64,000 nucleotides of DNA from Deltaproteobacteria bacterium (GTDB lineage Bacteria; Myxococcota; SpSt-1050): positions 5,438 through 69,437 of the forward strand of contig JAOAFA010000087.1 of NCBI GenBank assembly GCA_026416535.1, read 5' to 3'. A program made the position numbers and the translations under genes. Below the pieces are notes generated by a model. That model worked only from the letters and a program-made list of their open reading frames with translations, was not told the origin of the DNA and ran no database searches. Shown here piece after piece: positions 698 through 12,386 of the stretch (positions are counted from its first letter, which is position 1; each line of letters begins with the position of its first letter).

Positions 698-1393
698 TTA
701 CTCTTTCTTTAGTATTCTAACCTCTATTTTTCCTTTAAGTCCCTCTGCAAACTTTTTAGCATCGCTTTCGCTGCCGACGATCTCTCCGTAGTGCATGGGG
801 ATAGCAATCTTAGGTTTGATATCTAGAGCAGCCTTTATTGCCTCGTCAGCTGTCATTACGTAGGTTCCTGAGACTGGAAGCAGAGCTATGTCTGCTCTGA
901 AATTTTTCATTTCAGGGATATAATCTGTATCACCAGCAATGTATATTCTTATATCCCTGACTTTGAATATGTATCCCACCCATTTGTTTGTCTTTGGATG
1001 GAATTTTTTATTTGTGTTATATGATGGAACCACCTCAATATCGATGCCTTCTATTGTTATCTTGTCACCCGGCTTAACAATTTTTAGTTTGCCCATGAGT
1101 TTTTGTCCACAGTCTTCAGTTGCAACAATTATAGTTTCTTCCTTTTTGATCTTCTCTATATCTTCTGGCGAACAGTGATCAAAGTGTTCGTGGGTGATTA
1201 AGATAATGTCAGCCTTTTTTTCACTGTCCTTTAGTTTAAATGGATCTGTATAAATTACCTTTTCTCCTTCAATCCTGAATGTATCATGCCCAAGCCATTT
1301 GATAAAAGAGATATCCATCTTTTCACCTCCCATTACAATGGTTAAGAATGAGAACAATAAACAGGAAATTAATGAAAATGACACTTTTTTCAT
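698..1393 (-). CDS. Secreted MBL-fold metallo-hydrolase. Start moved to the internal Met at 1393, which has a GGAGG ribosome-binding site; this also removes the overlap with the upstream gene.
   Basis: The HEHFDH motif (HxHxDH, a metallo-beta-lactamase signature) follows an N-terminal hydrophobic signal segment. The plus strand reads 'cat' at 1391-1393, preceded on the minus strand by GGAGGGG. Confidence 0.75.
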   Translation of the reverse strand: MKKVSFSLISCLLFSFLTIVMGGEKMDISFIKWLGHDTFRIEGEKVIYTDPFKLKDSEKKADIILITHEHFDHCSPEDIEKIKKEETIIVATEDCGQKLMGKLKIVKPGDKITIEGIDIEVVPSYNTNKKFHPKTNKWVGYIFKVRDIRIYIAGDTDYIPEMKNFRADIALLPVSGTYVMTADEAIKAALDIKPKIAIPMHYGEIVGSESDAKKFAEGLKGKIEVRILKKE

Positions 1394-1412
1394 TGCCCCT
1401 CCTATTACAGTA

Positions 1413-3050
1413 TTAGGGTTGAGACTCGTGATCTTTTTTCTCAGAAAGAAGTTGATATGCAATCTCTACTGCCTTCTTTATCTTTTCTTTAACCTTTTCT
1501 TCTATTCTTATTTTGTTCATAAGTTTATTTATCTTTTCTTCTAAGGCATGTTTTTCCTCTGCGAATTGATTCCTTTCCATTTCGAAGGCATTTTCAAGTG
1601 CCGTTTTATCATCTCTTATCTGGTTTAAGTCGTCTTCGAGAGCCTTTTTGTCTGCCTCCATGTGTAGCATTTTCTCTTTTAGTTCAGCAATACTTTTCTT
1701 GAGGTCTTCGGCTTCAAATTTATATGGAGATAGTTCATTTACTTGTCTCTGTAGATCATATATCTTCATTTCTAACTCTTTTATTATGGTGTCTTTTGTT
1801 TTTAATAATTTTTCAAGCTCATTGGCTTTTCCTCGTGTATCCGAGGCATCCTTCTTATGTGTCTCTATATCATTTTGTAGTGCTGCAATCTGTTCTTTTA
1901 AACTAGTAAGCTTCTCATTAGCCTCTTTATCCTTTCTCTCTATCTCTTCTTGAAGTTTATGGATCTCCTCCTGTTTAGAAGCAATTTGGGTCAGTAGCTC
2001 TGTTACTTGTGAGTCCAATTTTTGTCGCTTTGCGATCTCCTCTTGAAGTTCTCTCTCCTTTTCTTTTAGTCTATTGTTTAGTTCAGCAGTGGCAGCGGGT
2101 ATTGAAGAGTCCCTTGATTTTTGAGCCTGTCTAAGCTCCTCTATCTGCTTTTTTAATGAGTTGATTTCGGAAAGTAGGTTTCTGTTTTCCTCTTCAAGCG
2201 TTTTTAGTTTTTTCTCATCAAAGGATTCCCTAGCTTTTGGAATTACAATTTTTTCTTCTCTCTTAGGTGCTTCTTCAATTCTAATATCATTAAAGTCGCC
2301 TTTTAACGATTCAAGCTCTTTGTCAATATCGGACGTGTCCTCACTAATGGAAATCTCCTTGGCTGAGATGCCGTCCTTTTTGAGTTCATCTTCGATAGAT
2401 ATATCTAATCCGCCCTCTTCAGACGTTGCTACTGGCTCTTTAATGCCGTCTATAACATTATCTAATGTATTAAGGTCAACCTCTTTAAAAATGTCGTCAC
2501 TAGCCTTATGTGTAGAATCCTCAACCGGTGCATCTTCAACCACAAGATTGCTTAGATCATCTTCAGATAGGTGTATTTCCTCCTCTTTGGATTCCTGTAG
2601 CTCTTCTTTGATATCAACATCATCGATGGTAAGTTCAATCTCCCCTTCCTCGCTTTCACTATCTGGGGAGGGTAGTCCTATAAGGTTTTTAATTCTATCT
2701 ATAAGCTCTTTTGGCTCGAAGGGTTTTATAAGATATTCCTCAGCACGTGTCTTGAGCTTTCTGTGTTGTTCAAATGTTTCAGGTGTAGCCTCACTGGAGA
2801 TTAAGATTAGAGGAATTGATTTGAGTTTGTTATCTTTTTTGAGTTTATTGCAAATGGAATATCCGCTCGTCTCTGGCAACTCTACACAAAGGACTATAAG
2901 GTCGGTTTCGTTTCTTTTTATAAAGTCAAGCCCTGTGTCTCCATCAGCAAATATGTCAACCTTGAATCCTTTTTTTGTAAGCTCATTTTTAAGTATGTTT
3001 GCAAAATCTCTTTCTGCTTCAATCAATGTAATATGTTTGTTTTCGCTCAT
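1413..3050 (-). CDS. Response-regulator receiver-like domain fused to a coiled coil of about 400 aa. The receiver looks atypical.
   Basis: The N-terminal 120 aa have the CheY-like fold pattern (hydrophobic beta strands, a conserved Lys in 'YLIKPF'), but the phospho-acceptor position reads 'LIVLCVELPE' (Cys, not Asp) and the acidic pair is 'EAERD'. The rest is Glu/Lys-rich heptad-like sequence. Confidence 0.7.
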   Translation of the reverse strand: MSENKHITLIEAERDFANILKNELTKKGFKVDIFADGDTGLDFIKRNETDLIVLCVELPETSGYSICNKLKKDNKLKSIPLILISSEATPETFEQHRKLKTRAEEYLIKPFEPKELIDRIKNLIGLPSPDSESEEGEIELTIDDVDIKEELQESKEEEIHLSEDDLSNLVVEDAPVEDSTHKASDDIFKEVDLNTLDNVIDGIKEPVATSEEGGLDISIEDELKKDGISAKEISISEDTSDIDKELESLKGDFNDIRIEEAPKREEKIVIPKARESFDEKKLKTLEEENRNLLSEINSLKKQIEELRQAQKSRDSSIPAATAELNNRLKEKERELQEEIAKRQKLDSQVTELLTQIASKQEEIHKLQEEIERKDKEANEKLTSLKEQIAALQNDIETHKKDASDTRGKANELEKLLKTKDTIIKELEMKIYDLQRQVNELSPYKFEAEDLKKSIAELKEKMLHMEADKKALEDDLNQIRDDKTALENAFEMERNQFAEEKHALEEKINKLMNKIRIEEKVKEKIKKAVEIAYQLLSEKKDHESQP

Positions 3051-3089
3051 AAGGGTTAATCCTTTCTTTTACCAATGATTAAAAATCTT

Positions 3090-3124
3090 TAGTATATTAT
3101 GATAATTTTCAACTATTTGTCAAA
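3090..3124 (-). promoter_or_regulatory. Candidate sigma70-type promoter for the response-regulator gene.
   Basis: On the minus strand: TTGACA, a spacer of about 17 nt, then TATCAT/ATAATA, located about 60 nt upstream of the ATG at 3050. An AAGGA ribosome-binding site lies just before the start. Confidence 0.3.
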
Positions 3125-3242
3125 CCTAAAATAATTTTTAAGAAAATCGTGTTTTGCTAATTGAAATTATATTTTAAGGGCGTAGTATGTCAAAAGTTTG
3201 ATAGGGGGGATAGAATCTTATAAGACTTATATATTTGGCTCT

Positions 3243-4232
3243 CTAATTTGTTTGCTCTTCCCTCTTGTGGCATGCCAAAAGTCCGCAATTCCTGTGACAC
3301 TTTTCCATTATGGCTTTGATCTTTTTTGCTGCTTCGGAATTAAGGATATTTATTAGCTTATCTTGTCTAACATTGCCAATTGCAAGACCATTATTAAGAT
3401 TGCGCATATGTGCACATAAAACAATGTCTCCACACAATTCGAGAAAGATGTTCTTGTTGTGAGAATCACAGACTGACTCCCCTATAAAGTCTGGGTTGTT
3501 TATATAGTTTTTGAACCACTCTATATCGCTCCTCTTAAGTAATACAAATGGGTCTTCTTTGTATTTGTTGTAAACCGATTCTAATATGCTTATTGCTTCA
3601 CTTTTGTTTTTAAAGAAGTGCTCGCTAAAGAATTTGTCTTCTTTAGATACTTTTGCGAAGGTTGGGTTAATTATTTGAAATAATACGCCTATAACATCGA
3701 GGCTACGTACAAACTCAATGTATTCAGGAAGATAGGCGATATTCTCATCAAATATTATGGATATAACGGTAATTTCAGTTTGAGAATTCTTAGTTTGTTT
3801 ATTTAAACTAACCAGTCTTTTTATTGAATCCAATGTCTTATCAAATGCGTCATTCTTTCCTCTCAGTCTATTGTGGATCTCCGGAATATGACTGTCCAAG
3901 GATAATGTTATATATGTAGGTCCTTCTTCTATAAGGCGTTTTATGGTCTCATCTGTGAAGTCATATCCATTAGTTACACAGGCTGATTTTAGGCCTTTTG
4001 ATCTTATATACTTGCATATTTCGAAAAAGTTGTTCTGGTGAATAGTAGGCTCTGCACCACTAATTATTATTATCCCCTGTGGATTTATATTACTAAATTG
4101 GTCGATAACCTCTTTAATTTCTTTTACAGTCAACTTATCTTCTGGGTCTCTGTATGTCCAAAAATGACACATCTGACATCTAAGATTACATTCTCTGGTT
4201 ATCGTAATATATAGATAGCGCGGTACTCTCAT
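3243..4232 (-). CDS. Radical SAM enzyme with a C-terminal SPASM/twitch-like cysteine-rich domain.
   Basis: CNLRCQMCHFW (CxxxCxxC) sits at residues 15-22, as expected for the radical-SAM cluster. The C-terminus carries extra cysteine clusters (CDSHNK...LCGDIVLC...CHRNCGLLACH) consistent with auxiliary Fe-S clusters. Confidence 0.8.
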   Translation of the reverse strand: MRVPRYLYITITRECNLRCQMCHFWTYRDPEDKLTVKEIKEVIDQFSNINPQGIIIISGAEPTIHQNNFFEICKYIRSKGLKSACVTNGYDFTDETIKRLIEEGPTYITLSLDSHIPEIHNRLRGKNDAFDKTLDSIKRLVSLNKQTKNSQTEITVISIIFDENIAYLPEYIEFVRSLDVIGVLFQIINPTFAKVSKEDKFFSEHFFKNKSEAISILESVYNKYKEDPFVLLKRSDIEWFKNYINNPDFIGESVCDSHNKNIFLELCGDIVLCAHMRNLNNGLAIGNVRQDKLINILNSEAAKKIKAIMEKCHRNCGLLACHKREEQTN

Positions 4233-4316
4233 TGAAGATTTATATTATGTTGTTTTTGTTTAATTTTAAATGAAAAAATTATGTAATTTTATCTTTCTTA
4301 AGTGTAAGGTCGGTTC

Positions 4317-5510
4317 CTAACATCCACCTAGTGCTCGCTTCTGCTTTTTCTTGACAGGACCTGATGGTTTGTTCTTTTTTATTAATTCTAGTATCTCGAC
4401 TTTTGCTCTCGATCTAAAACGATTTAGCCACTGTTCATCAATAGTCTTTGGTTCATTAATTGGCTCAAATTCGAGGATGTTTTTCTTAAAGGCATTTAAT
4501 CCTCCTTTGAGTATCTTTATGTTTTTAAATCCCATCTTGTGTGCAACAATTGCCATTTTTCGCTCCACCATCTCATCGTCTGCTACAAAAAGATTATCTG
4601 TGTGTCTATACCTTAAGAACTGTGAAGGTTCTTTTTCAAATAGGTTATCTACGGTAAATAGTGTTGAGCGAGGTAAACTCCATTCTGAGTATGACTTGTC
4701 ATTTCTAAAATCGATTATTTGAAGTCTTTGCTCACTTTTGTCGAGTAGTCTAAAGGCTAGCTCATCGACTGACATCTCTTTTAGAGGATAACTTTTGACA
4801 AAGTATTCGTCTTGAACTAATCTAAGCAGATAAGTTTTTCTGTCGATAAAATTAACAGAGAGAATAAGTAATATTATCCCTGAGATTGCTATAATAATGT
4901 TGGTTTTATTTATCCTAATAAATTTTACCTCCTCTTTGTTAACTTTTTTCTCGATGATGGATACAAAATAAAATGTAATGAGAGCTGTAAGGGTTAGTAT
5001 AAATGCAAAGAGATTAGGAGAGATGTTAAAGGTATCTGATATTCTTGGGGTGCCAATGTAAGCTGATTTATATAATGACTCAAAGATGGGATATCCCTCT
5101 GTAAATATTAGAACACCTATAAATGCCCCTCCAATAAATATCATGGCATCTATCTTTCCTATTGATGCAGCACAAAAACTTGTTCCCGGGCAGTACCCTC
5201 CTAAAACAAAGCCAAGTCCCATAATTAGTCCACCTACTATTGCTGACCAGATGTAAGTTGGGTTTATGTAAATTAGATTTATGTCGAGTAGACCGAAGTG
5301 GAAAAGTCCTAAGACGCCGATCATTGCAACAATGCCAGCAGTAAAAAATACTCTAAGGACTGTGAAGTCGTATCCGTAAAATAGTCCGACGAGTTTTCTT
5401 GAACTGGAGAAACCCGCCTGTTCTAATATCATACCAAATAGTCCTCCGATTATAAGTGCTATTACATAATTTAAATTAGGACTGATTATATCAGGTACAA
5501 GGGGTCCCAT
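4317..5510 (-). CDS. YeeE/YedE-family sulfur-transporter membrane protein fused to a C-terminal rhodanese (sulfurtransferase) domain.
   Basis: The N-terminus has about 8 predicted TM helices with Gly-rich YeeE/YedE-like segments (IIGGLFGMILEQAGFSS; GLGFVLGGYCPGTS). The C-terminal ~110 aa resemble rhodanese (LQIIDFR...FVADDEMVERKMAIVAHKMGFKNIKILKGGLNAF). Confidence 0.75.
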   Translation of the reverse strand: MGPLVPDIISPNLNYVIALIIGGLFGMILEQAGFSSSRKLVGLFYGYDFTVLRVFFTAGIVAMIGVLGLFHFGLLDINLIYINPTYIWSAIVGGLIMGLGFVLGGYCPGTSFCAASIGKIDAMIFIGGAFIGVLIFTEGYPIFESLYKSAYIGTPRISDTFNISPNLFAFILTLTALITFYFVSIIEKKVNKEEVKFIRINKTNIIIAISGIILLILSVNFIDRKTYLLRLVQDEYFVKSYPLKEMSVDELAFRLLDKSEQRLQIIDFRNDKSYSEWSLPRSTLFTVDNLFEKEPSQFLRYRHTDNLFVADDEMVERKMAIVAHKMGFKNIKILKGGLNAFKKNILEFEPINEPKTIDEQWLNRFRSRAKVEILELIKKNKPSGPVKKKQKRALGGC

Positions 5511-5522
5511 ATGTTTTCCTCC

Positions 5523-6041
5523 TCAGATCCAAAATTTTCTTAAAAAGTAAGCAAATCCATAGGCACCGCCAAAGATGGAGATCATTACCAAAAGCCCTCC
5601 TGTTGACATAACGGCCAATCCTGATAATGCCGCTCCGCTTGTGCATCCCCTACCAAGTTGTGAGCCGATGCCCCACAGTAGGCCTCCTATTAATGCACCA
5701 AAGATCCTCATTCTTGTTGTTGAGTTTGGACCTTTCTCGAGTTTGAGATCTAATCTCCCTGATATCAGTCCTGATATGAATGCCCCAATTAGAACTCCGA
5801 TTATTTCAAATACCAACCAATTCAATAGGGGATTGGCTCCTTCATTTTCTTTTGAGTACTCCTGATAAAATTTTGTGTTTGATGTATGATCTGGTGCTAT
5901 GAATTTGATGGTAGCTACAACTGTACTTTTTATTGCGCCACTCGCACCTAAACCTCTACCTGTTATATATATTGTAGTTAAGAGAAGTAGCCCTAATAAA
6001 AGTCCGGCTAAATACGGATTCATATACTTTTTCTCTTCCAT
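5523..6041 (-). CDS. YeeE/YedE-family membrane protein; half of a split transporter.
   Basis: Contains GRGLGASGAIKST and GSQLGRGCTSGAALSGL motifs, typical of the YeeE/YedE (thiosulfate importer family) repeat unit. It lies 12 bp upstream of the second half. Confidence 0.7.
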   Translation of the reverse strand: MEEKKYMNPYLAGLLLGLLLLTTIYITGRGLGASGAIKSTVVATIKFIAPDHTSNTKFYQEYSKENEGANPLLNWLVFEIIGVLIGAFISGLISGRLDLKLEKGPNSTTRMRIFGALIGGLLWGIGSQLGRGCTSGAALSGLAVMSTGGLLVMISIFGGAYGFAYFLRKFWI

Positions 6042-6057
6042 CTTTGCACCTCATTGT

Positions 6058-6690
6058 TTACTTTATTTCTGGATGTAACTTATCATCTTCTATCTCTTCA
6101 TAACCTGTTAACATAGCTTTTAAATTTGAAGTGATTGTATCACCAGTTGTTATTAGGTATAAATGCATTATTATGAATGTTACCATTAAAAACGCTGATG
6201 CTGTGTGTATAATTGCGATTATCTCTAGAGAATCTATGTTAATTGCTTCAATGCCATGACGTGTTGGATATCTATACATCATGTACAAGATGCCTGATAT
6301 TATACTTGTAGGGATGAGTATGATTTTTAATCCAAAGTAGGTAATCCTCTGTAGTGGATTTAATTTGCTTAGAAGGGTCTTTTTTGTTGGGTGAGGGGCG
6401 TTTTTAAATATTCCAAATAAATAGAAATCGAGTTGGGCTTTTATATTTTTCAGGGTTGGGATGTATTGCTTATATTCCCCTGTAGTTAGGTGCCAGAAAA
6501 TGGCAAACATAGTTAGTAGTAGAAAGAGATAGGCTGCAAGATTGTGGTATTTTACGGCATCCTTAAAACCTAAGAATGTATATGATCCATGTATCTCAAA
6601 CCCTGTGAAGATCAGAAAAAAAATAAGTATTGCCTGCATCCAGTGCCAAAATCTTTCAAACCCTTTATAGATTAAAACCCGTTTCTTCAT
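6058..6690 (-). CDS. b-type cytochrome membrane subunit (Ni/Fe-hydrogenase or PhsC-type cytochrome b family); probable quinol-interacting anchor.
   Basis: Four TM helices carry conserved His residues (FWHWMQ, YHNLAAY, FWHLTTG, IIHTASAF...IMHLY). Its start overlaps the upstream cytochrome c stop (ATGA), indicating translational coupling. Confidence 0.65.
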   Translation of the reverse strand: MKKRVLIYKGFERFWHWMQAILIFFLIFTGFEIHGSYTFLGFKDAVKYHNLAAYLFLLLTMFAIFWHLTTGEYKQYIPTLKNIKAQLDFYLFGIFKNAPHPTKKTLLSKLNPLQRITYFGLKIILIPTSIISGILYMMYRYPTRHGIEAINIDSLEIIAIIHTASAFLMVTFIIMHLYLITTGDTITSNLKAMLTGYEEIEDDKLHPEIK

Positions 6691-8264
6691 CTTGTTCTCC
6701 TTCTTCTTATGTGGTTTGCTACTATTCTTCCACTCCCGTGGACGAACACCAAAAGTATTGTGAAAACTATGAGTAATCTACCAATTCTATCAACCAAAGG
6801 TGAATAATCTCGGCCCGGTATATAGAAGTCCCGGAGATTTGCTATTCTTGAATTGTTTCTGGTGTGGCATTCTTCACACCTTACAGCCTTTTCTTTGGGT
6901 GAGACCATATGATTTAAAGGCCAATACATCTTTGTTTCGATAAAACCTACTTTTCCACTAAATGGCATGCCATGTTCTCTCATTCCCATCTCTGACGCCT
7001 TTATCCAATCAAAGTCTTTCCAGAAAGCACCACTCCCTTTTTCCTCTGAGTATAATTTTGGCTGAATAAGTATGTTGTTAACAGGATCATATGGTTGTTT
7101 TGCAGTATGAATTTTTACAGGTATGATTTTTGAATCATCGTCTTTATAACTTCCATGAAGTGTATTTAAGAAGAGAGGGGACTTGGGATCTTTTATTTTG
7201 TCTCCAATAAGGTAATGTGAAGCAGTGCCATTGAACCAGATGTAATCTGGTTTTAAATTCTTACCCCATTTGAAAGATCCTTTTGTAGACATATATGTCT
7301 TGTTTCCCTCTGCATCTTTCTCTATGTATGGTTCTCCATTTTTTAGCTTTCCTGCTGTTGACCAATCCCAATAAATCATTGTTGCATTTGCCTTTGCATA
7401 TATGGGTATGTGACATGCTTGACAAGATACCTTTAGGGTGTGTTCATTGATTATATCATCATTATGAGGTGTGTTGGTATGGCACTCCTCGCAACTAATC
7501 CTTTCTCTGTTCATAGATGATAGAGAGTAAAGCTTTCCGAAGATATTGTGCTCCTTTGTCTTGTGACAATCTATACAATGCATATTTACACCGTCGATAG
7601 CCATGTGCACATCTATATCTCTTGTAGCCTCAAACTGTATACTTTCTAGATCTCCATGCTTTACGTTATTGCCGCCGCCACCGAAGAAGTGGCATACACC
7701 ACAATTACTTCTTTTGGGTTTTCCTACATTATGGATGATATTTTTAAAATCCAGAGATTTCTCTGGTTCTCCCCCTCTCTCTGATGCTTTCATATATGTC
7801 TCTGTATTATCATGACATATCATACAATCGATATTGGTTGGATCCGTAAAGAGGTTTCCCTTTTCATCAAGTCCCAGCCCTACATGGCATTTGGCACAAG
7901 CCTTTTCATTACCCTGAGCCGCAATGCAAAAATTATTTATGGCATTCTTTTTGCCAATAAAGACAATACCCCTGTCCTTGACATATTCGACTCTTTCCCA
8001 GTTGAAGTGATTTGATTTCATTATCTCATGGGCTGTCAGATTATGGCAGTATTCGCAGGCTTTAGTAATCTCCCTTGGGTTAGGGAAGTCCTGGTTCAAA
8101 ATTTCGAATTTTGAGTGATCTGCCTCTTTTTTATACTCTCTTTTTGAATATTTCTCTTTTAGTATTAGGATGTGTGGTTTTTCAAGCTCGTTACTCTTGA
8201 GAGTGCCGTATATTATAGCTGTGACAAGACCAAAAGAGAGAAGCAGTAATAATATCTTTCTCAT
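6687..8264 (-). CDS. Octaheme c-type cytochrome.
   Basis: Eight CxxCH motifs: CEYCH, CAKCH, CMICH, CGVCH, CIDCH, CEECH, CQACH, CEECH. There is an N-terminal signal/anchor and a C-terminal hydrophobic segment. An AGGTGA ribosome-binding site precedes the start. Confidence 0.85.
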   Translation of the reverse strand: MRKILLLLLSFGLVTAIIYGTLKSNELEKPHILILKEKYSKREYKKEADHSKFEILNQDFPNPREITKACEYCHNLTAHEIMKSNHFNWERVEYVKDRGIVFIGKKNAINNFCIAAQGNEKACAKCHVGLGLDEKGNLFTDPTNIDCMICHDNTETYMKASERGGEPEKSLDFKNIIHNVGKPKRSNCGVCHFFGGGGNNVKHGDLESIQFEATRDIDVHMAIDGVNMHCIDCHKTKEHNIFGKLYSLSSMNRERISCEECHTNTPHNDDIINEHTLKVSCQACHIPIYAKANATMIYWDWSTAGKLKNGEPYIEKDAEGNKTYMSTKGSFKWGKNLKPDYIWFNGTASHYLIGDKIKDPKSPLFLNTLHGSYKDDDSKIIPVKIHTAKQPYDPVNNILIQPKLYSEEKGSGAFWKDFDWIKASEMGMREHGMPFSGKVGFIETKMYWPLNHMVSPKEKAVRCEECHTRNNSRIANLRDFYIPGRDYSPLVDRIGRLLIVFTILLVFVHGSGRIVANHIRRRRTR

Positions 8265-8295
8265 GCCATCACCTAAATTTTACATAATACATATC

Positions 8296-8700
8296 TTATC
8301 TGCCTTCACACAGTTGTTTTATCCCCTCAATGAATTTAATAATACTTCTATGTTTAATGGAGTAGAAGACTTTGTTTCCATCCTTCCTGCTTATGAGTAT
8401 TGAACTATTTTCTAAAACTCTTAGATGTTGGGATATATTCCCCATTGTAGTTCCTATCTCGTTGATGAGTTCGCTGACATTTTTTTCTCTATCTACCAGT
8501 AGACAAACGATAAGAAGTCTGATTGGTGACGATAATGCCTTAAGCATCTTTGCAATTTTTTTTGCTTCATTGAGTCTCTTTGTCTTTTCGTAAGTAAACA
8601 TATTTAGTATTTTAGCCAATACTAAAATACTGTCAAGCAGAATTTTTTCATTTTTCGAGAGTCTAGCATTATTTGAAGTATGTGTAAGGTAGTAGAACAT
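8296..8700 (-). CDS. ArsR/SmtB-family transcriptional regulator. The true start may be the internal Met ('MFTYEK').
   Basis: Helix-turn-helix signature LSSPIRLLIVCLL...VSELINEIGTTMGNISQHLRVLENSSIL...FYSI. It sits 31 bp upstream of the cytochrome gene. Confidence 0.8.
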   Translation of the reverse strand: MFYYLTHTSNNARLSKNEKILLDSILVLAKILNMFTYEKTKRLNEAKKIAKMLKALSSPIRLLIVCLLVDREKNVSELINEIGTTMGNISQHLRVLENSSILISRKDGNKVFYSIKHRSIIKFIEGIKQLCEGR

Positions 8701-9079
8701 ATAGAACCTACTAAGAAAATTTTCTGGTGTAATCTGATTAGAACTTTAATTAGATATCTTACTCGACTGTATCCTAAATGTAACTCCTTTGGTGGTACGA
8801 TTTTATTTTGGCCTAAGTACTGAGTAGGGAGGTGTATATAGTAGAATACTGACGGGTCCAAAAGATTTTCTCTGAAGATTTTTATTTGGTTGATAACAAG
8901 ATATGTTCCGCATTTGTTGCTCATTAAACTTCTTAAGAAGTGTATTTAGTGAATGATAAAAAATTTTTTACATGAAGCATTGGGGATTAATTTATGGTAT
9001 CTTTCAAATTCTGCATTTGTATGCACTTGAGAATAATGTTATTTTTTGATATTTGGTAATTTATCGAGGGGGTGTATTT

Positions 9080-9859
9080 ATGGAGTTTAAGGATTTTAGC
9101 GATTTTTTGAAGACAGTGGAAGGTCTAGATTCTGAAGGTAAGGAATTCGTGATTTGTACCGTTGTTGATAGTACCGGCTCATCACCTCAAAAGGCCGGTT
9201 CGAAGATGGTAGTAACTTGTGATGATAGATGCTTTGGGACAGTAGGTGGGGGTGTAGTGGAGTCGGAGGTGATTAACCGAGCCAAAATGATGTTAAAAGA
9301 GAAGACTCCTCCCCAGGTAATAAGGTTTGATTTAAATAACTTTGATGTAGGTGTGTGTGGTGGTTCTATGTCTATTTTTTTAGAGGGTATTTATTCGAAT
9401 AAAGAGGTACTGATCTTTGGTGCGGGGCATGTTGCTGAGGCTGTATGTGATATATTGAGTAAGTTAAGCTATAGAATTACTGTCTTTGACAATAGGAGTG
9501 AGAGATTAAATCTTCCCGTATTTAAGAATTGTGAAAGGATATGTGCTGAGTATTCTGATTTAAAGAATCATGTCAAGATTACCACAAATACAGACATACT
9601 CATCATGACACCAAATCATGAATATGATTTTTTAGTAGTTAAGGAGGTATTAAAGGAGAATTATGGTTCTATCGGAGTTTTAGGTTCACATAAGAAAAGA
9701 TTGGAATTGCATGAATACTTGAAGAATCATGGATTTGCAACTAATGAGATAGATAGAATAAGGATTCCAGTTGGGCTTGATATCGGTTCAAAAAATCCTT
9801 ATGAGATAGCTATATCGATTATAGCCGAGCTTATTAAGATGAGATCAAGAGAAAGATGA
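9080..9859 (+). CDS. XdhC/CoxI-family accessory protein (cofactor-insertion chaperone family). Start taken at MEFKDF, which has a GAGGGGG ribosome-binding site.
   Basis: N-terminal 'VICTVVDSTGSSPQKAGSKMVV' and 'GTVGGG' match the XdhC N-domain. The C-terminus has a Rossmann-like 'LIFGAGHVAEAV'. Confidence 0.75.
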   Translation: MEFKDFSDFLKTVEGLDSEGKEFVICTVVDSTGSSPQKAGSKMVVTCDDRCFGTVGGGVVESEVINRAKMMLKEKTPPQVIRFDLNNFDVGVCGGSMSIFLEGIYSNKEVLIFGAGHVAEAVCDILSKLSYRITVFDNRSERLNLPVFKNCERICAEYSDLKNHVKITTNTDILIMTPNHEYDFLVVKEVLKENYGSIGVLGSHKKRLELHEYLKNHGFATNEIDRIRIPVGLDIGSKNPYEIAISIIAELIKMRSRER

Positions 9860-10428
9860 ATCTTTCGGCAATAATACTCGCTGCTGGTGAGGGGAGAAGA
9901 ATTGGTGTTCCCAAAGCAATTTTAAAAATTGGTACTTCTTTTCTGGCAGATATCCAGTATGAGTTTTTGAGTTGTTGCAAATTTCAAAAGATTGTAATTG
10001 TAATTGGGGCAGAGGCGGCTGTAGTTAAAGAGTGTCTTAAATATTCTAAGTATGCCGTAGTGAATAGTAACTATCATTTAGGGCAGTTCTCTTCTCTGAT
10101 AAAAGGTATTTGTTCGGTGGATTCCTGTAGAGGTGTTTTAGTGCTCCCTGTGGATGTCTATCCATTGGAGAAATTAGTGTTGGATCGGTTAGTTAATGAG
10201 GTTGATGAATCCTTTGATGCCGTAGTACCTGTAAATTATGGTAGAAGGGGGCATCCTGTAATATTATTAGATAGGTTGGTCCGGAGACTAGCAAAGTATG
10301 ATGTAAAGGACTCGAGGTTGGATTTTATATTAAGAGAATGTAGGGTAAAAGAGGTTTATGTAAACAGTAAGTCGATTTTCTATAATATTAACACCTTAGA
10401 TAATTTAGAGAAATTGAATATCTCCTAG
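9856..10428 (+). CDS. MobA/MocA-like nucleotidyltransferase (molybdenum-cofactor nucleotidyltransferase family).
   Basis: The N-terminal 'AIILAAGEGRRIGVPKA' resembles the MobA-like NTP-transferase glycine loop. A 4-bp overlap with the XdhC stop suggests coupling. Confidence 0.7.
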   Translation: MNLSAIILAAGEGRRIGVPKAILKIGTSFLADIQYEFLSCCKFQKIVIVIGAEAAVVKECLKYSKYAVVNSNYHLGQFSSLIKGICSVDSCRGVLVLPVDVYPLEKLVLDRLVNEVDESFDAVVPVNYGRRGHPVILLDRLVRRLAKYDVKDSRLDFILRECRVKEVYVNSKSIFYNINTLDNLEKLNIS

Positions 10429-10529
10429 GTACAAGATAGAGGAAAATGGATTTTGAAGGTGATGTATTATGTTTAAAATAAAGTATAAAAAATGTATTTA
10501 CAAATAATGTATTATATAGTATATGGCAA

Positions 10530-10757
10530 GTGATTAAAGGTGAGGAGAGAGAAATGATAGAAAGTAAAGATGATGAGAAGTATATTCGTGTCTCGCTAAA
10601 GATAGCGCTTAGATTAAAAAAGGAACCTAATTTGGAACTTGAAGCATTAATTGAGGAGGAGGCAATTAAAAACTCATTGGATAGGCATAAACTAGCCAGA
10701 TACTTTGCTCAGAATCAGCAGGTATGGATAGGTTCAAGTAAATGTCATGAAAAATAA
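10530..10757 (+). CDS. Small hypothetical protein (75 aa), within the operon.
   Basis: A GGTGAGGAG ribosome-binding site lies upstream. No recognisable domain. Confidence 0.35.
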   Translation: MIKGEEREMIESKDDEKYIRVSLKIALRLKKEPNLELEALIEEEAIKNSLDRHKLARYFAQNQQVWIGSSKCHEK

Positions 10758-10774
10758 AGAAGGTTATTGTTACT

Positions 10775-12022
10775 TTGGTAGATGACTTTAACACATTAGA
10801 GACATATAGAGACCACATCTCAGTTGCTCCTATCCCGAGAATAAAGAGATTAAGAGATCGTGAGGTAAGTAGAAGGGTGGCTTGCTCATTAAAAGGCTTT
10901 TTAGGGTCACTAACTAGAAAGATAAGGGCAACAGTATGTGTCACTGATAATACAAGACCGTTCCCTGAAAAAAAGATTCTACCTTTGATTTTAGATATTA
11001 TGGAAGATTCGGGAGTAAAGAGGGGGAATATAACAATAGTTGTTGCTACAGGCCTTCATAGGCACCTTACAAAGGATGAACTCATCTCCAAGTTTGGTAG
11101 ATATGTGTTTAAAAATTATAATATTATACAAAATGATCCCCATGAATCAGTGGGTATAAGGAAAAAATTGTATGTGAACAGAGCGTTATGCGAATCTGAT
11201 TTCATAGTAGGCTTGGGTGTATTTGAACCTCATCAGTATGCAGGCTTCTCTGGTGGAAACAAGATCTTTATAATTGGTTGTGGGGGTCGACAAACAATAG
11301 ACTACACCCACTCTCCGAAGATGATATTGAGAAGAGGGGTTAGGTTAGGAAATACGACTAATAATCCGTTTAGAAACTTTATAGAAAATTCAGCGAATTA
11401 TCTACCTCCTAGATGGATATTGAATGTCGTCTTAAATGATGATGGTGACATTATATGCTTTAGCTCCGGAGAACCTAGTGAGGTATTTAATTCCCTTTAC
11501 GAATGGTATAAGGAGAATCTTGTCTTTAGTTTTAAAGAGAGATTTGATGCAGCGTTTGTAGTTTTGGACAGACATAAAGGCGTGAATTTGTATCAGGCCT
11601 CAAGAGGTGCAACCTACTTGGCCTTGTCTAGATCCCCTATTATTAAGAAGGGTTCTCCTATAATTATTTCAGCAAAGCTTGAAGAAGGTTTTGGTACTGG
11701 AGATGGAGAGAAAGAATTCCAGAGGATTTTACTTTCAAATATTAGAAATAGTGAATTGCTGGAGAGACTCAAAAGAGAGGATATAAGGGGTGGTGGCCAG
11801 AGAGCCGTCATGCTACTTTATACCCTTTTAAATCATCCTGTAATTTTTACGGGGTTCAAAAGAGATATAAAATTTCAGAGAGAGAATATCTATTTTATAC
11901 CGGTTATAAGTGATGCGGTGAGAAAAGTTATCTCTGATTTTGGTTGCAGAAAGATAGTTTACGTAAAAAATCCCTTTTTGGGACTTTTTTGTTTTTCAGA
12001 GGGTAAAAAGGGCGAAAATTAA
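10775..12022 (+). CDS. LarA-family protein (lactate-racemase-like; NPN-cofactor-dependent racemase/epimerase family).
   Basis: Block similarity to Lactobacillus LarA: TDNTRP vs SDHTRP; IVVATGLHR vs ILVATGFHR (the catalytic His108 equivalent is conserved); FEPHQYAGFSGGNK vs IESHFFAGFSGGRK (the cofactor-tethering Lys184 equivalent is conserved). A downstream His in 'DYTH' may correspond to His200. Confidence 0.75.
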   Translation: MVDDFNTLETYRDHISVAPIPRIKRLRDREVSRRVACSLKGFLGSLTRKIRATVCVTDNTRPFPEKKILPLILDIMEDSGVKRGNITIVVATGLHRHLTKDELISKFGRYVFKNYNIIQNDPHESVGIRKKLYVNRALCESDFIVGLGVFEPHQYAGFSGGNKIFIIGCGGRQTIDYTHSPKMILRRGVRLGNTTNNPFRNFIENSANYLPPRWILNVVLNDDGDIICFSSGEPSEVFNSLYEWYKENLVFSFKERFDAAFVVLDRHKGVNLYQASRGATYLALSRSPIIKKGSPIIISAKLEEGFGTGDGEKEFQRILLSNIRNSELLERLKREDIRGGGQRAVMLLYTLLNHPVIFTGFKRDIKFQRENIYFIPVISDAVRKVISDFGCRKIVYVKNPFLGLFCFSEGKKGEN

Positions 12023-12083: not shown

Positions 12084-12386
12084 ATGCCAAAGAAAGTAGC
12101 AAAGAAAGCAAAACCAGCAAAGGTAAAGTCGAAGAGAAAACCAAATCCAGAATTTATGAAGCCGATGCAGCCGTCAGAGGCGCTCGCAAAGATCGTCGGT
12201 TCAAAACCACTTCCAAGGACAGAAGTTGTGAAGAAGGTTTGGGCCTACATCAAAAAGAACGGGCTTCAAGACAAGGAGAACAAGAGACAGATTAATGCAG
12301 ATGAAAATCTCAAAGTGATTTTTGGAGGCAAGAAGTCTGTTACAATGTTTGAGATGACAAAGCTCGTAAACAAACACTTAAAGTAA
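12084..12386 (+). CDS. SWIB/MDM2-domain protein with an N-terminal lysine-rich, histone-H1-like tail.
   Basis: The C-terminal ~75 aa (ALAKIVGSKPLPRTEVVKKVWAYIKKNGLQD...INADENLKVIFGGKKSVTMFEMTKLVNKHL) match the SWIB domain consensus closely. The N-terminus is MPKKVAKKAKPAKVKSKRKP. Confidence 0.85.
   Translation: MPKKVAKKAKPAKVKSKRKPNPEFMKPMQPSEALAKIVGSKPLPRTEVVKKVWAYIKKNGLQDKENKRQINADENLKVIFGGKKSVTMFEMTKLVNKHLK

Follow-up and report, generated by a model that had tools for sequence, protein, structure and literature searches.

A conserved Otr-cytochrome b gene module with a split YeeE/YedE channel and a cysteine-tailed rhodanese-like domain: a candidate periplasmic sulfur reductase

The locus and its conserved core

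In a stretch of 64,000 nucleotides from contig JAOAFA010000087.1 of a Deltaproteobacteria bacterium (assembly GCA_026416535.1), the whole of which we call the window, six open reading frames (ORFs) follow one another on the minus strand. They encode an ArsR-type regulator, an octahaem cytochrome c of the Otr family, a membrane cytochrome b, two proteins that each carry one half of a YeeE/YedE transporter (the larger extended by a rhodanese-like domain), and a radical-S-adenosylmethionine (radical-SAM)/SPASM protein (Table 1). The initial annotation, made from the sequence alone, had taken all six as one operon for the handling of sulfur compounds. All six ORFs are present on the one strand, and every family assignment was confirmed by Pfam and NCBIfam searches. 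The intergenic gaps, read from the ArsR to the radical-SAM gene, are 31, -4, 16, 12 and 84 bp, the negative value being the ATGA overlap already seen between the cytochrome c and cytochrome b genes. However, only five of the genes form a unit, and the conserved core is made up of four of them: otr, the cytochrome b gene and the two YeeE/YedE halves.

Table 1. Features of the module and its immediate surroundings, in positions of the window
Feature	Position	Strand	Basis
ArsR regulator	8296-8700 as longest ORF; 8296-8601 as likely gene (101 aa)	minus	PF01022, NF033788
Otr-family octahaem cytochrome c, 525 aa	6687-8264	minus	TIGR04315, eight CXXCH
Membrane cytochrome b, 210 aa	6058-6690	minus	PF01292 (FdnI/HyaC/PhsC type)
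Small YeeE/YedE subunit, 172 aa	5523-6041	minus	PF04143 C-terminal half
Large YeeE/YedE subunit with rhodanese-like domain, 397 aa	4317-5510	minus	PF04143 N-terminal half, PF00581
Membrane part of large subunit, residues 1-215	4866-5510	minus	PF04143 positions 12-166, AlphaFold
Cys-less rhodanese-like domain, residues ~225-385	4356-4838	minus	PF00581, Foldseek
Polybasic C-terminal tail, K-R-A-L-G-G-C-COOH	4320-4355	minus	Orthologue alignment, predicted local distance difference test (pLDDT)
Radical-SAM/SPASM gene, 329 aa; judged outside the module	3243-4232	minus	Domains and neighbourhood data
Predicted operon promoter and operator	8606-8636	minus	Consensus scan, sequence reading, inverted-repeat search

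An Otr alignment scanned against the GTDB representatives, with one genome per species, gave at least 597 matches, of which the best 80 loci were kept. These are the best-scoring relatives, with Otr proteins at least about 50% (and up to 79%) identical, and the presence of genes was scored by tblastn of the six window proteins. The order otr, cytochrome b, yeeE (172 aa) and yeeE/rhodanese (397 aa), all in the same orientation, was found at 68 of the 80 loci. Among the 12 loci where the full core was not detected, seven end at contig edges, one was flagged solely for overlapping otr and cytochrome b genes, and three (L038, L064 and L077) keep an ORF of full length that ends in the typical tail but whose rhodanese part is too divergent for scoring in place; only L054 has a seemingly truncated core. 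The core is thus kept in about 72 of 73 informative loci, and the cytochrome b gene is adjacent to otr in all 80. The hosts belong to the Ignavibacteriota, Bacteroidota, Acidobacteriota, Planctomycetota, Chloroflexota, Armatimonadota/Chthonomonadia, LCP-89 and other phyla. Because the synteny is kept across phyla, the five-gene arrangement, with the radical-SAM gene excepted, lies far beyond chance. The earlier proposal that a quinol-linked multihaem module and a split YeeE/YedE-rhodanese transporter form a co-conserved functional unit tied to sulfur chemistry is upheld, and the neighbourhood comparison that had been recommended as a check bears out the co-occurrence of the four core genes, though not of the sixth gene.

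Clustering of the flanking ORFs of about 84 loci yielded a single kind of recurrent neighbour, namely regulators directly upstream on the same strand. No nitrogen-metabolism gene, and no selD, selA or other selenium gene, recurred near the module in these clusters. The closest relatives (L081-L083 and L094, with Otr proteins 70-79% identical) keep the ArsR gene together with the four core genes, and have unrelated genes downstream of the core, often on the opposite strand.

The radical-SAM/SPASM gene, which had been thought to end the operon as a maturase, does not share this conservation. It was found by tblastn at 0/80 module loci and is absent from the closest relatives (L081-L084 and L094), including those whose Otr is 75-79% identical. 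Its own orthologues in related metagenome-assembled genomes (66-67% identity) lie beside a divergent cluster of genes for a PNP_UDP_1-type nucleoside phosphorylase, cytidine deaminase and ATP-grasp proteins, and once beside carAB, with no otr or yeeE near them; more distant homologues occur in glycosyltransferase/radical-SAM clusters. The family is very small (32 homologues detected in the protein database). The protein carries a CX3CX2C motif at Cys15/19/22 and a SPASM domain, and its 75 NCBIfam matches are all weak, none being near cutoff. SPASM enzymes often mature proteins or peptides, and a gene on the same strand, 84 bp downstream, would suit a dedicated maturase of the cytochrome or the transporter that, for example, modifies the tail or cross-links an active-site residue. 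As no intrinsic terminator is predicted within the operon on the minus strand, read-through co-transcription is possible. Against such a six-gene operon speak the neighbourhoods just described and the translation signals: the gene follows an AT-rich gap and lacks a Shine-Dalgarno sequence, which the other five genes have. We rejected the radical-SAM protein as a maturase of the module on the neighbourhood evidence and regard its membership as barely credible.

The cytochromes and the channel with its cysteine tail

The cytochrome c falls into the Otr family (TIGR04315, 551.9 bits against a cutoff of 375) and not into the HAO/ONR group, which answers the question of placement that had been left to a hidden Markov model search. 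Its eight CXXCH motifs, at residues 70, 123, 147, 188, 230, 258, 281 and 463, are all conserved in 83 sequences. It aligns with the Otr of Shewanella oneidensis (SO_4144, 1SP3) over 417 residues (396 bits), and the two proteins share the family and fold signature, the eight haem motifs, the unusual distal lysine ligand of the active-site haem, the haem-II motif and the extra cysteine. In the numbering of PMC3769277, the invariant K105 of the window protein aligns with Lys56 of Otr, the haem-II motif C123AKC126H127 with C74XXC77H78, and the one non-haem cysteine, the invariant Cys113, with C64.

The two proteins differ in how they are placed in the cell. Shewanella Otr is a soluble protein that is thought to receive its electrons via CymA and periplasmic cytochromes, whereas the window Otr is membrane-anchored and has its own cytochrome b. 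Its N-terminus is a signal or anchor, and a C-terminal transmembrane (TM) helix with the invariant residues His509 and Arg513 is followed by a basic cytoplasmic tail. The cytochrome b partner is sometimes fused to Otr, as in the natural fusion P0113. A further difference is that Otr proteins of the window type have an obligatory partner in the channel and the cysteine-tailed arm described below. The Otr-cytochrome b pair was noted before in T. dismutans, but the channel was not (PMC4911364).

The cytochrome b is a PF01292 protein (93.3 bits against a cutoff of 30.1). Its score with the PhsC equivalog NF011582 (109.4 bits against a cutoff of 204) makes it PhsC-like rather than PhsC. It shows the dihaem histidine pattern of the FdnI/HyaC/PhsC type (TM1, TM2 and TM4; His16, 49 or 67, 162 and 176) plus extra conserved histidines, among them His34 and His100. 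Across 80 sequences, each of His16, 34, 49, 67, 100, 162 and 176 is conserved to 95% or more. These are seven conserved histidines, compared with the four that two b haems need. The interface between Otr and cytochrome b, to which His509 and Arg513 of Otr may also belong, may hold an extra haem or contribute to a quinol site. The architecture recalls that of FdnH/FdnI, where the C-terminal helix of a periplasmic redox subunit packs on a four-helix cytochrome b. We presume that the cytochrome b is the partner of Otr that interacts with quinol or quinone.

The two channel subunits together make up a split YeeE/YedE protein of the PmpAB/YedE1E2 type. The 172-aa subunit (PF04143, 79.7 bits, profile positions 175-309, cutoff 27) corresponds to the C-terminal half, H8-H13, of a full-length YeeE. 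The membrane part of the 397-aa subunit (58.2 bits, profile positions 12-166, same cutoff) has the H1-H6 core, an H7-like helix and one extra TM helix; AlphaFold places helices at residues 11-34, 49-71, 84-104, 114-150, 165-190 and 202-220. Both relay cysteines of the family are invariant or nearly so, namely Cys107 of the large subunit (G-G-[YF]-C-P-G, equal to C91 of StYeeE) and Cys133 of the small subunit (G-R-G-C-T-S-G, equal to C293), the two StYeeE residues being essential; the large subunit has another cysteine, Cys113, in its YeeE core. A division of YeeE between two genes is known from PmpA and PmpB, which are its C- and N-terminal halves (PMC11582611), and from YedE1E2, which imports zero-valent sulfur by way of two essential cysteines (PMC10812762). 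The module resembles these systems in having one YeeE half per gene, both relay cysteines and, often, an adjacent ArsR-type regulator. It differs from them in that its N-half subunit is extended by the H7-like helix, the extra helix, the rhodanese-like domain and a GGC tail, and in that its partners are respiratory reductases, not a persulfide dioxygenase or TusA-like proteins.

The soluble part of the large subunit has a rhodanese fold (PF00581, 33.4 bits against a cutoff of 22.2; pLDDT 85-92), and Foldseek matches it to the single-domain rhodaneses 3IWH and 3FOJ with probability 1.0 and TM-scores of 0.78-0.80. The initial annotation had called it a rhodanese sulfurtransferase domain. The fold stands, but the catalytic cysteine of the CX5R type is missing: its position is taken by the near-invariant Ala310, followed by an acidic loop (DDEMVER), and the soluble domain of the window protein is without cysteine. 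In the alignment, this arrangement resembles the Cys-less Alr3790 domain. It would therefore be wrong to classify the protein as an ordinary sulfurtransferase.

The presumably reactive cysteine is found in the tail instead. The chain ends exactly in GGC in 59 of 73 complete orthologues, and in GGCG, GGCS or GGCGV in about 10 more, and the motif K-[KR]-x-x-G-G-C is invariant in all 39 aligned homologues. The tail cysteine is usually the sole cysteine outside the membrane, and the tail itself is predicted to be disordered (pLDDT 34). By analogy with SoxYZ, we propose that it serves as a swinging arm with a carrier cysteine. The likeness lies in a lone reactive cysteine borne by a C-terminal periplasmic peptide that is flexible and flanked by glycines, and it is a likeness of function only: the arm of the module is rhodanese-like, without the SoxY fold or the GGCGG arm, its polybasic tail ends at the cysteine, and it is paired with a reductase-type cytochrome in place of SoxAX, SoxB or SoxCD. 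In the Sox system, tetrathionate converts the carrier-arm cysteine to an S-thiosulfonate (PMC5336275), and SoxY-bound sulfane sulfur has been proposed to be handed over to the YeeE-like importer SoxT1A (PMC11582611).

The predicted topology places the tail outside the inner membrane. In StYeeE, the H1-H6 half has both ends outside, and H7 brings the chain inside (PMC7449682). As H1-H6 contain four membrane-spanning helices and two further helices follow in the module protein, the N-terminus and the soluble domain should be on the same side, the outside. At their N-termini, unfused homologues of the arm have either a classical signal anchor or the lipobox of a lipoprotein. A periplasmic position is thus predicted for the rhodanese-like domain together with its tail.

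These unfused homologues link the arm to a second type of enzyme. In an exhaustive, profile-free search, the soluble domain matched only 153 clusters among 1.84 billion representatives. Many of these hold proteins about 200 aa long, built of an N-terminal signal anchor, the domain and a tail of the form ...GGC(G/S/D). Where such proteins are encoded, the YeeE N-half gene stops directly behind the H7-like helix, and the arm has a gene of its own. A metagenome scan with an alignment of six close unfused arm proteins gave 80 loci, for which we report counts where the contig is long enough. The two YeeE halves precede the unfused arm gene in 61/63 and 50/51 testable loci. Upstream of this unit, on the same strand, lie genes for an NrfD/PsrC-like protein (44/44), a 4Fe-4S PsrB-like protein (33/33) and a Tat-exported molybdopterin protein of the PsrA/PhsA type (25/25), for which the best NCBIfam match is PhsA (466 bits against a cutoff of 694). 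Neither otr nor a cytochrome b gene was found ahead of the unfused arm gene in these metagenome loci (0/33), and a second arm-type protein is encoded downstream in 31/51. The channel and arm are therefore an accessory unit common to two non-homologous, quinol-linked periplasmic reductases.

PsrABC and PhsABC, together with Sud of Wolinella, exemplify a quinol-linked periplasmic reductase that is helped by a periplasmic rhodanese-type sulfur carrier. The Otr module follows the same logic, and the unfused accessory unit is encoded directly after the Psr/Phs-like ABC genes. The redox parts differ, in that a molybdenum-bis(pyranopterin guanine dinucleotide) cofactor, an FeS subunit and an NrfD-type anchor on the one side correspond to a haem c chain and a cytochrome b on the other. 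The carriers differ as well, since that of the module has its cysteine at the C-terminus and not in an active-site loop, and is tethered to the membrane and coupled to a channel.

The two reductase types also meet in single genomes. At L064, L071, L037, L057 and L068, Psr-like genes are found no more than 10 kb from the Otr module (Bacteroidota, Ignavibacteriales and Acidobacteriota), which suggests "sulfur islands" with both types. At one locus, L153, unfused arm genes adjoin otr and the cytochrome b gene. There, positions 1074-5762 of a metagenome contig encode, in this order, a lipoprotein of the GGC-tailed rhodanese-like kind, a lipoprotein of 368 aa with tandem rhodanese domains and the canonical active-site loop CYSGQVS, then Otr, and lastly a cytochrome b that carries an additional, fused domain of about 150 aa at its C-terminus.

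Database models for the channel itself do not decide what it carries. The best TsuA model reaches 46.6 bits (cutoff 400, NCBIfam), and the selenium YedE models reach 26-32 bits (cutoffs 200-350), with YedE/FdhT the best among them (31.8 bits, cutoff 350); with all scores below cutoff, the substrate cannot be assigned from these models. This bears on a reading in which selenite is reduced in the periplasm, reduced selenium enters through a YedE-type channel, and the tail cysteine carries selenium. Members of the YedE family have been linked to selenium transport, the module does give weak matches to the selenium YedE models, and the PsrA/PhsA lineage that partners the unfused unit includes the selenite reductase SrrA (PMC7331816). 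However, those matches are far below cutoff and no better than that to TsuA, selD, selA and other selenium genes do not recur nearby, and the regulator of the module resembles persulfide sensors. We consider a selenium pathway very improbable.

The regulator slot

The ArsR gene heads the operon in the window, as initially annotated, but with an amended start and only in some lineages. A near-consensus sigma-70 promoter (11 of 12 positions) consists of TTGACA at 8636-8631, a 16-nt spacer and TAAAAT at 8614-8609, and a perfect 10-nt inverted repeat (8606-8615 and 8622-8631) overlaps its -10 element. The -10 element ends 7 nt before an internal ATG at 8601. In the longest ArsR ORF, the first 33 codons overlie the promoter. 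ArsR orthologues have 100-103 aa, and promoter, inverted repeat and distance to the ATG are conserved upstream of ArsR in L081, L082, L083 and L094. Together, orthologue length and the conserved promoter make it almost certain that the true start is the internal methionine at 8601 and that the product has 101 aa. With the ATG so close behind the -10 element, the mRNA is probably leaderless or nearly so. The inverted repeat is the predicted operator, by which ArsR would control its own promoter.

The regulator scores 73 bits with NF033788 (cutoff 55) and also matches PF01022. Its best solved relative is BigR (3PQJ), and its residues Cys33 and Cys98 align with the sensor pair of SqrR, which lies in alpha2 and the C-terminal helix (6O8L; LLIVC/LMIMC and QLCEG/QFCSG). 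Both cysteines are kept in 6/6 module-linked ArsR proteins. As the score with the NCBIfam BigR equivalog is below cutoff (62.7 bits against 155), we call the protein SqrR/BigR-like and predict a two-cysteine regulator of the type that senses sulfane sulfur. Like SqrR and BigR, it is encoded upstream of sulfur-handling genes that include YeeE-like proteins. It differs from them in its sub-cutoff score, in preceding a respiratory-type operon, and in that its sensing chemistry is a prediction.

In other lineages, the slot upstream of otr is filled by regulators of other families: MerR-type at 22 loci and MarR-type at 18, with ArsR at 8, the window included. In all, an adjacent regulator was detected in about 48 of about 84 clustered loci. 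This is a non-orthologous replacement of the sensor. The MerR-type proteins carry a Cys-rich C-terminus (CWKHLDCP...CPAY...GCW); examples of MerR and MarR types are found at L050:9495-10004 and L025:9519-9980, with about 40 further loci. At L084, a hemerythrin-domain protein occupies the slot.

The presence of Cys-containing regulators of three families in this slot, and the SqrR cysteine pair of the module's own ArsR, would fit the idea that the channel is a conduit for a signal. Otr and cytochrome b would then work as a stand-alone respiratory reductase, and channel and arm would import no more than traces of sulfane sulfur, by which the thiol-based regulator in the cytoplasm would sense the substrate outside, as proposed for SoxT1B and SoxR; SoxT1B has been described as a signal-transducing YeeE-like protein that acts with an ArsR-type repressor (PMC11582611). 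However, the channel is kept far more strictly than an adjacent regulator (about 72/73 informative loci versus about 48 of about 84), the channel-plus-arm unit is also strictly linked to Psr-like enzymes, and a fused periplasmic domain with an invariant tail seems more than sensing would need. We think it unlikely that signalling is what the channel is for, although a signalling role and one in sulfur metabolism are not mutually exclusive.

A candidate reductase of sulfane-type sulfur

Together, our data lead us to favour, with somewhat better than even confidence, the view that the module is a sulfur-responsive operon for a membrane-bound periplasmic reductase of sulfane-type sulfur (most likely tetrathionate, polysulfide or thiosulfate) that is equipped with an arm-type carrier and with sulfur import. 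By analogy, the system would work like known respiratory sulfur reductases that use a periplasmic sulfur carrier. Menaquinol would be oxidised at cytochrome b, and its electrons would travel along the chain of c haems as far as the active-site haem, which is Lys-ligated and lies on the periplasmic side. The tail cysteine would bind the substrate covalently, as a persulfide or polysulfide or, in the case of tetrathionate, as an S-thiosulfonate, and would swing between the active site of the reductase and the outer mouth of the channel. The substrate would be reduced at the Lys-ligated haem, possibly while bound to the tail cysteine, and the channel would pass sulfane sulfur or thiosulfate into the cell by way of its pair of conserved cysteines. 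The imported sulfur would then feed metabolism and release the repressor. The initial annotation had suggested a respiratory or assimilatory sulfur-compound module, and the tie to sulfur is supported by the YeeE/YedE partners and by the accessory unit shared with Psr/Phs-like enzymes.

A narrower proposal concerns the tail. The KRxxGGC sequence on a "dead" periplasmic rhodanese may be a new covalent sulfur-carrier arm that resembles SoxY but serves reduction and import; loaded with persulfide, polysulfide or S-thiosulfonate adducts, it would shuttle between a reductase, either Otr-cytochrome b or Psr/Phs-like, and a YedE1E2-type channel. We put this forward tentatively, and as the more doubtful of the two statements.

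Shewanella Otr resembles NrfA and HAO in structure, and its active haem is ligated by Lys; an enzyme of the nitrogen cycle is a further reading. The module would then encode a quinol-dependent nitrite or hydroxylamine reductase, for dissimilatory nitrate reduction to ammonium (DNRA) or for detoxification, and the transporter would be unrelated to it. In vitro, Shewanella Otr does best with nitrite and hydroxylamine (PMC12949373). Several observations speak for sulfur and not nitrogen: the obligate partners belong to a sulfur-transport family and conserve its relay cysteines, YedE1E2 imports sulfur, the accessory unit is common to Psr/Phs-like sulfur reductases, the repressor is of the SqrR type predicted to sense sulfane sulfur, with thiol-type regulators in the same slot elsewhere, and a hand-over from SoxY to a YeeE-like protein has been proposed. 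Nor does any nitrogen-metabolism gene recur in the neighbourhood. A nitrogen-cycle enzyme with an unrelated transporter seems to us quite improbable.

If sulfur is the substrate, the electrons could in principle run the other way, with thiosulfate, sulfide or carrier-bound sulfane sulfur being oxidised in the periplasm in a Sox- or TsdA-like manner, for detoxification or for energy, and the electrons passing by way of cytochrome b to the quinone pool. Cytochromes b of the PF01292 type run in both directions, FdnI and HyaC being examples that reduce quinone. Carrier arms like that of SoxY typically belong to oxidative pathways, and BigR-type regulators control operons for sulfide detoxification. 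But Lys-ligated haems of the Otr/NrfA type are those of reductases, and the other partner of the accessory unit is a reductase, of the Psr/Phs type. Moreover, the tetrathionate/thiosulfate couple (+198 mV, cited in PMC8528874) lies well above menaquinone, which favours reduction by menaquinol and makes the transfer of electrons from thiosulfate to quinone unfavourable. Oxidation is thus a direction that we hold to have only a slim chance of being the right one.

As to the reduction of sulfane-type sulfur, the experimental literature on Otr is divided. An acidobacterial otr gene, which may or may not belong to the clade studied here, was induced 36-fold by tetrathionate (PMC8528874). Several points, however, weigh against our preferred reading. 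Purified Shewanella Otr reduced nitrite and hydroxylamine far better than tetrathionate, and deletion of otr in Shewanella sp. ANA-3 gave no tetrathionate phenotype, its authors suggesting sulfite (PMC12949373). More distant soluble Otr proteins such as those of Shewanella lie outside the 80-locus sample and may lack the partners. AlphaFold modelled the membrane half of the 397-aa subunit, taken alone, with low confidence, which is why Foldseek matched rhodaneses only and not YeeE. The periplasmic placement of the arm rests on homology-based topology and the signal sequences of paralogues, and we infer what the substrate is, which way the electrons flow and how the tail reacts covalently.

Some neighbouring genes in the window deserve mention in their own right. 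Divergent from the operon, positions 9053-12022 on the plus strand encode an XdhC-family protein, a MobA-like nucleotidyltransferase and a protein with a LarA N-terminal domain (DUF2088-like). This suggests a cluster for the maturation of a cofactor (molybdenum or nickel-pincer); it is not conserved beside the module elsewhere. It is followed at 12084-12386 (plus strand) by a gene for a Lys-rich protein of 100 aa with a SWIB/MDM2 domain (110 bits), which is uncommon in bacteria. On the far side of the radical-SAM gene, positions 1413-3050 (minus strand) encode a protein of 545 aa in which a response-regulator receiver domain precedes a long stretch that is acidic and coiled-coil-like; ahead of this gene lie two near-consensus sigma-70 promoters (3193-3166 and 3123-3096).

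Each component of the module is individually annotated in databases. For the association of Otr, cytochrome b, YeeE and rhodanese, in contrast, we found no description in the searchable full-text literature, in agreement with the earlier impression that the gene combination is not a recognised system. The same literature does not describe the family of GGC-tailed Cys-less rhodaneses, or its alternation between Otr and Psr-like enzymes. For the label "TsoR", taken from NF045707, no literature was found, and we dropped it.

The physiological role of Otr has been unsettled since 2004, and a study of 2026 still regards the function as unestablished (PMC12949373). In a large clade that spans many phyla, otr is now tied to a cytochrome b on the quinol side and to a sulfur channel bearing a tethered cysteine arm. 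This association is a testable argument for sulfur species as the natural substrates of Otr, and it advises caution in the use of otr alone as a metagenomic marker of "tetrathionate reduction" or DNRA. The Cys-less rhodanese with a GGC tail is a previously unremarked protein family. If its tail is indeed a carrier arm, a single machine in the membrane would couple respiration mechanically to the import of sulfur. The substrate of this Otr clade would then be protein-bound sulfur and not a free anion, which would also explain the poor activity with tetrathionate in vitro.

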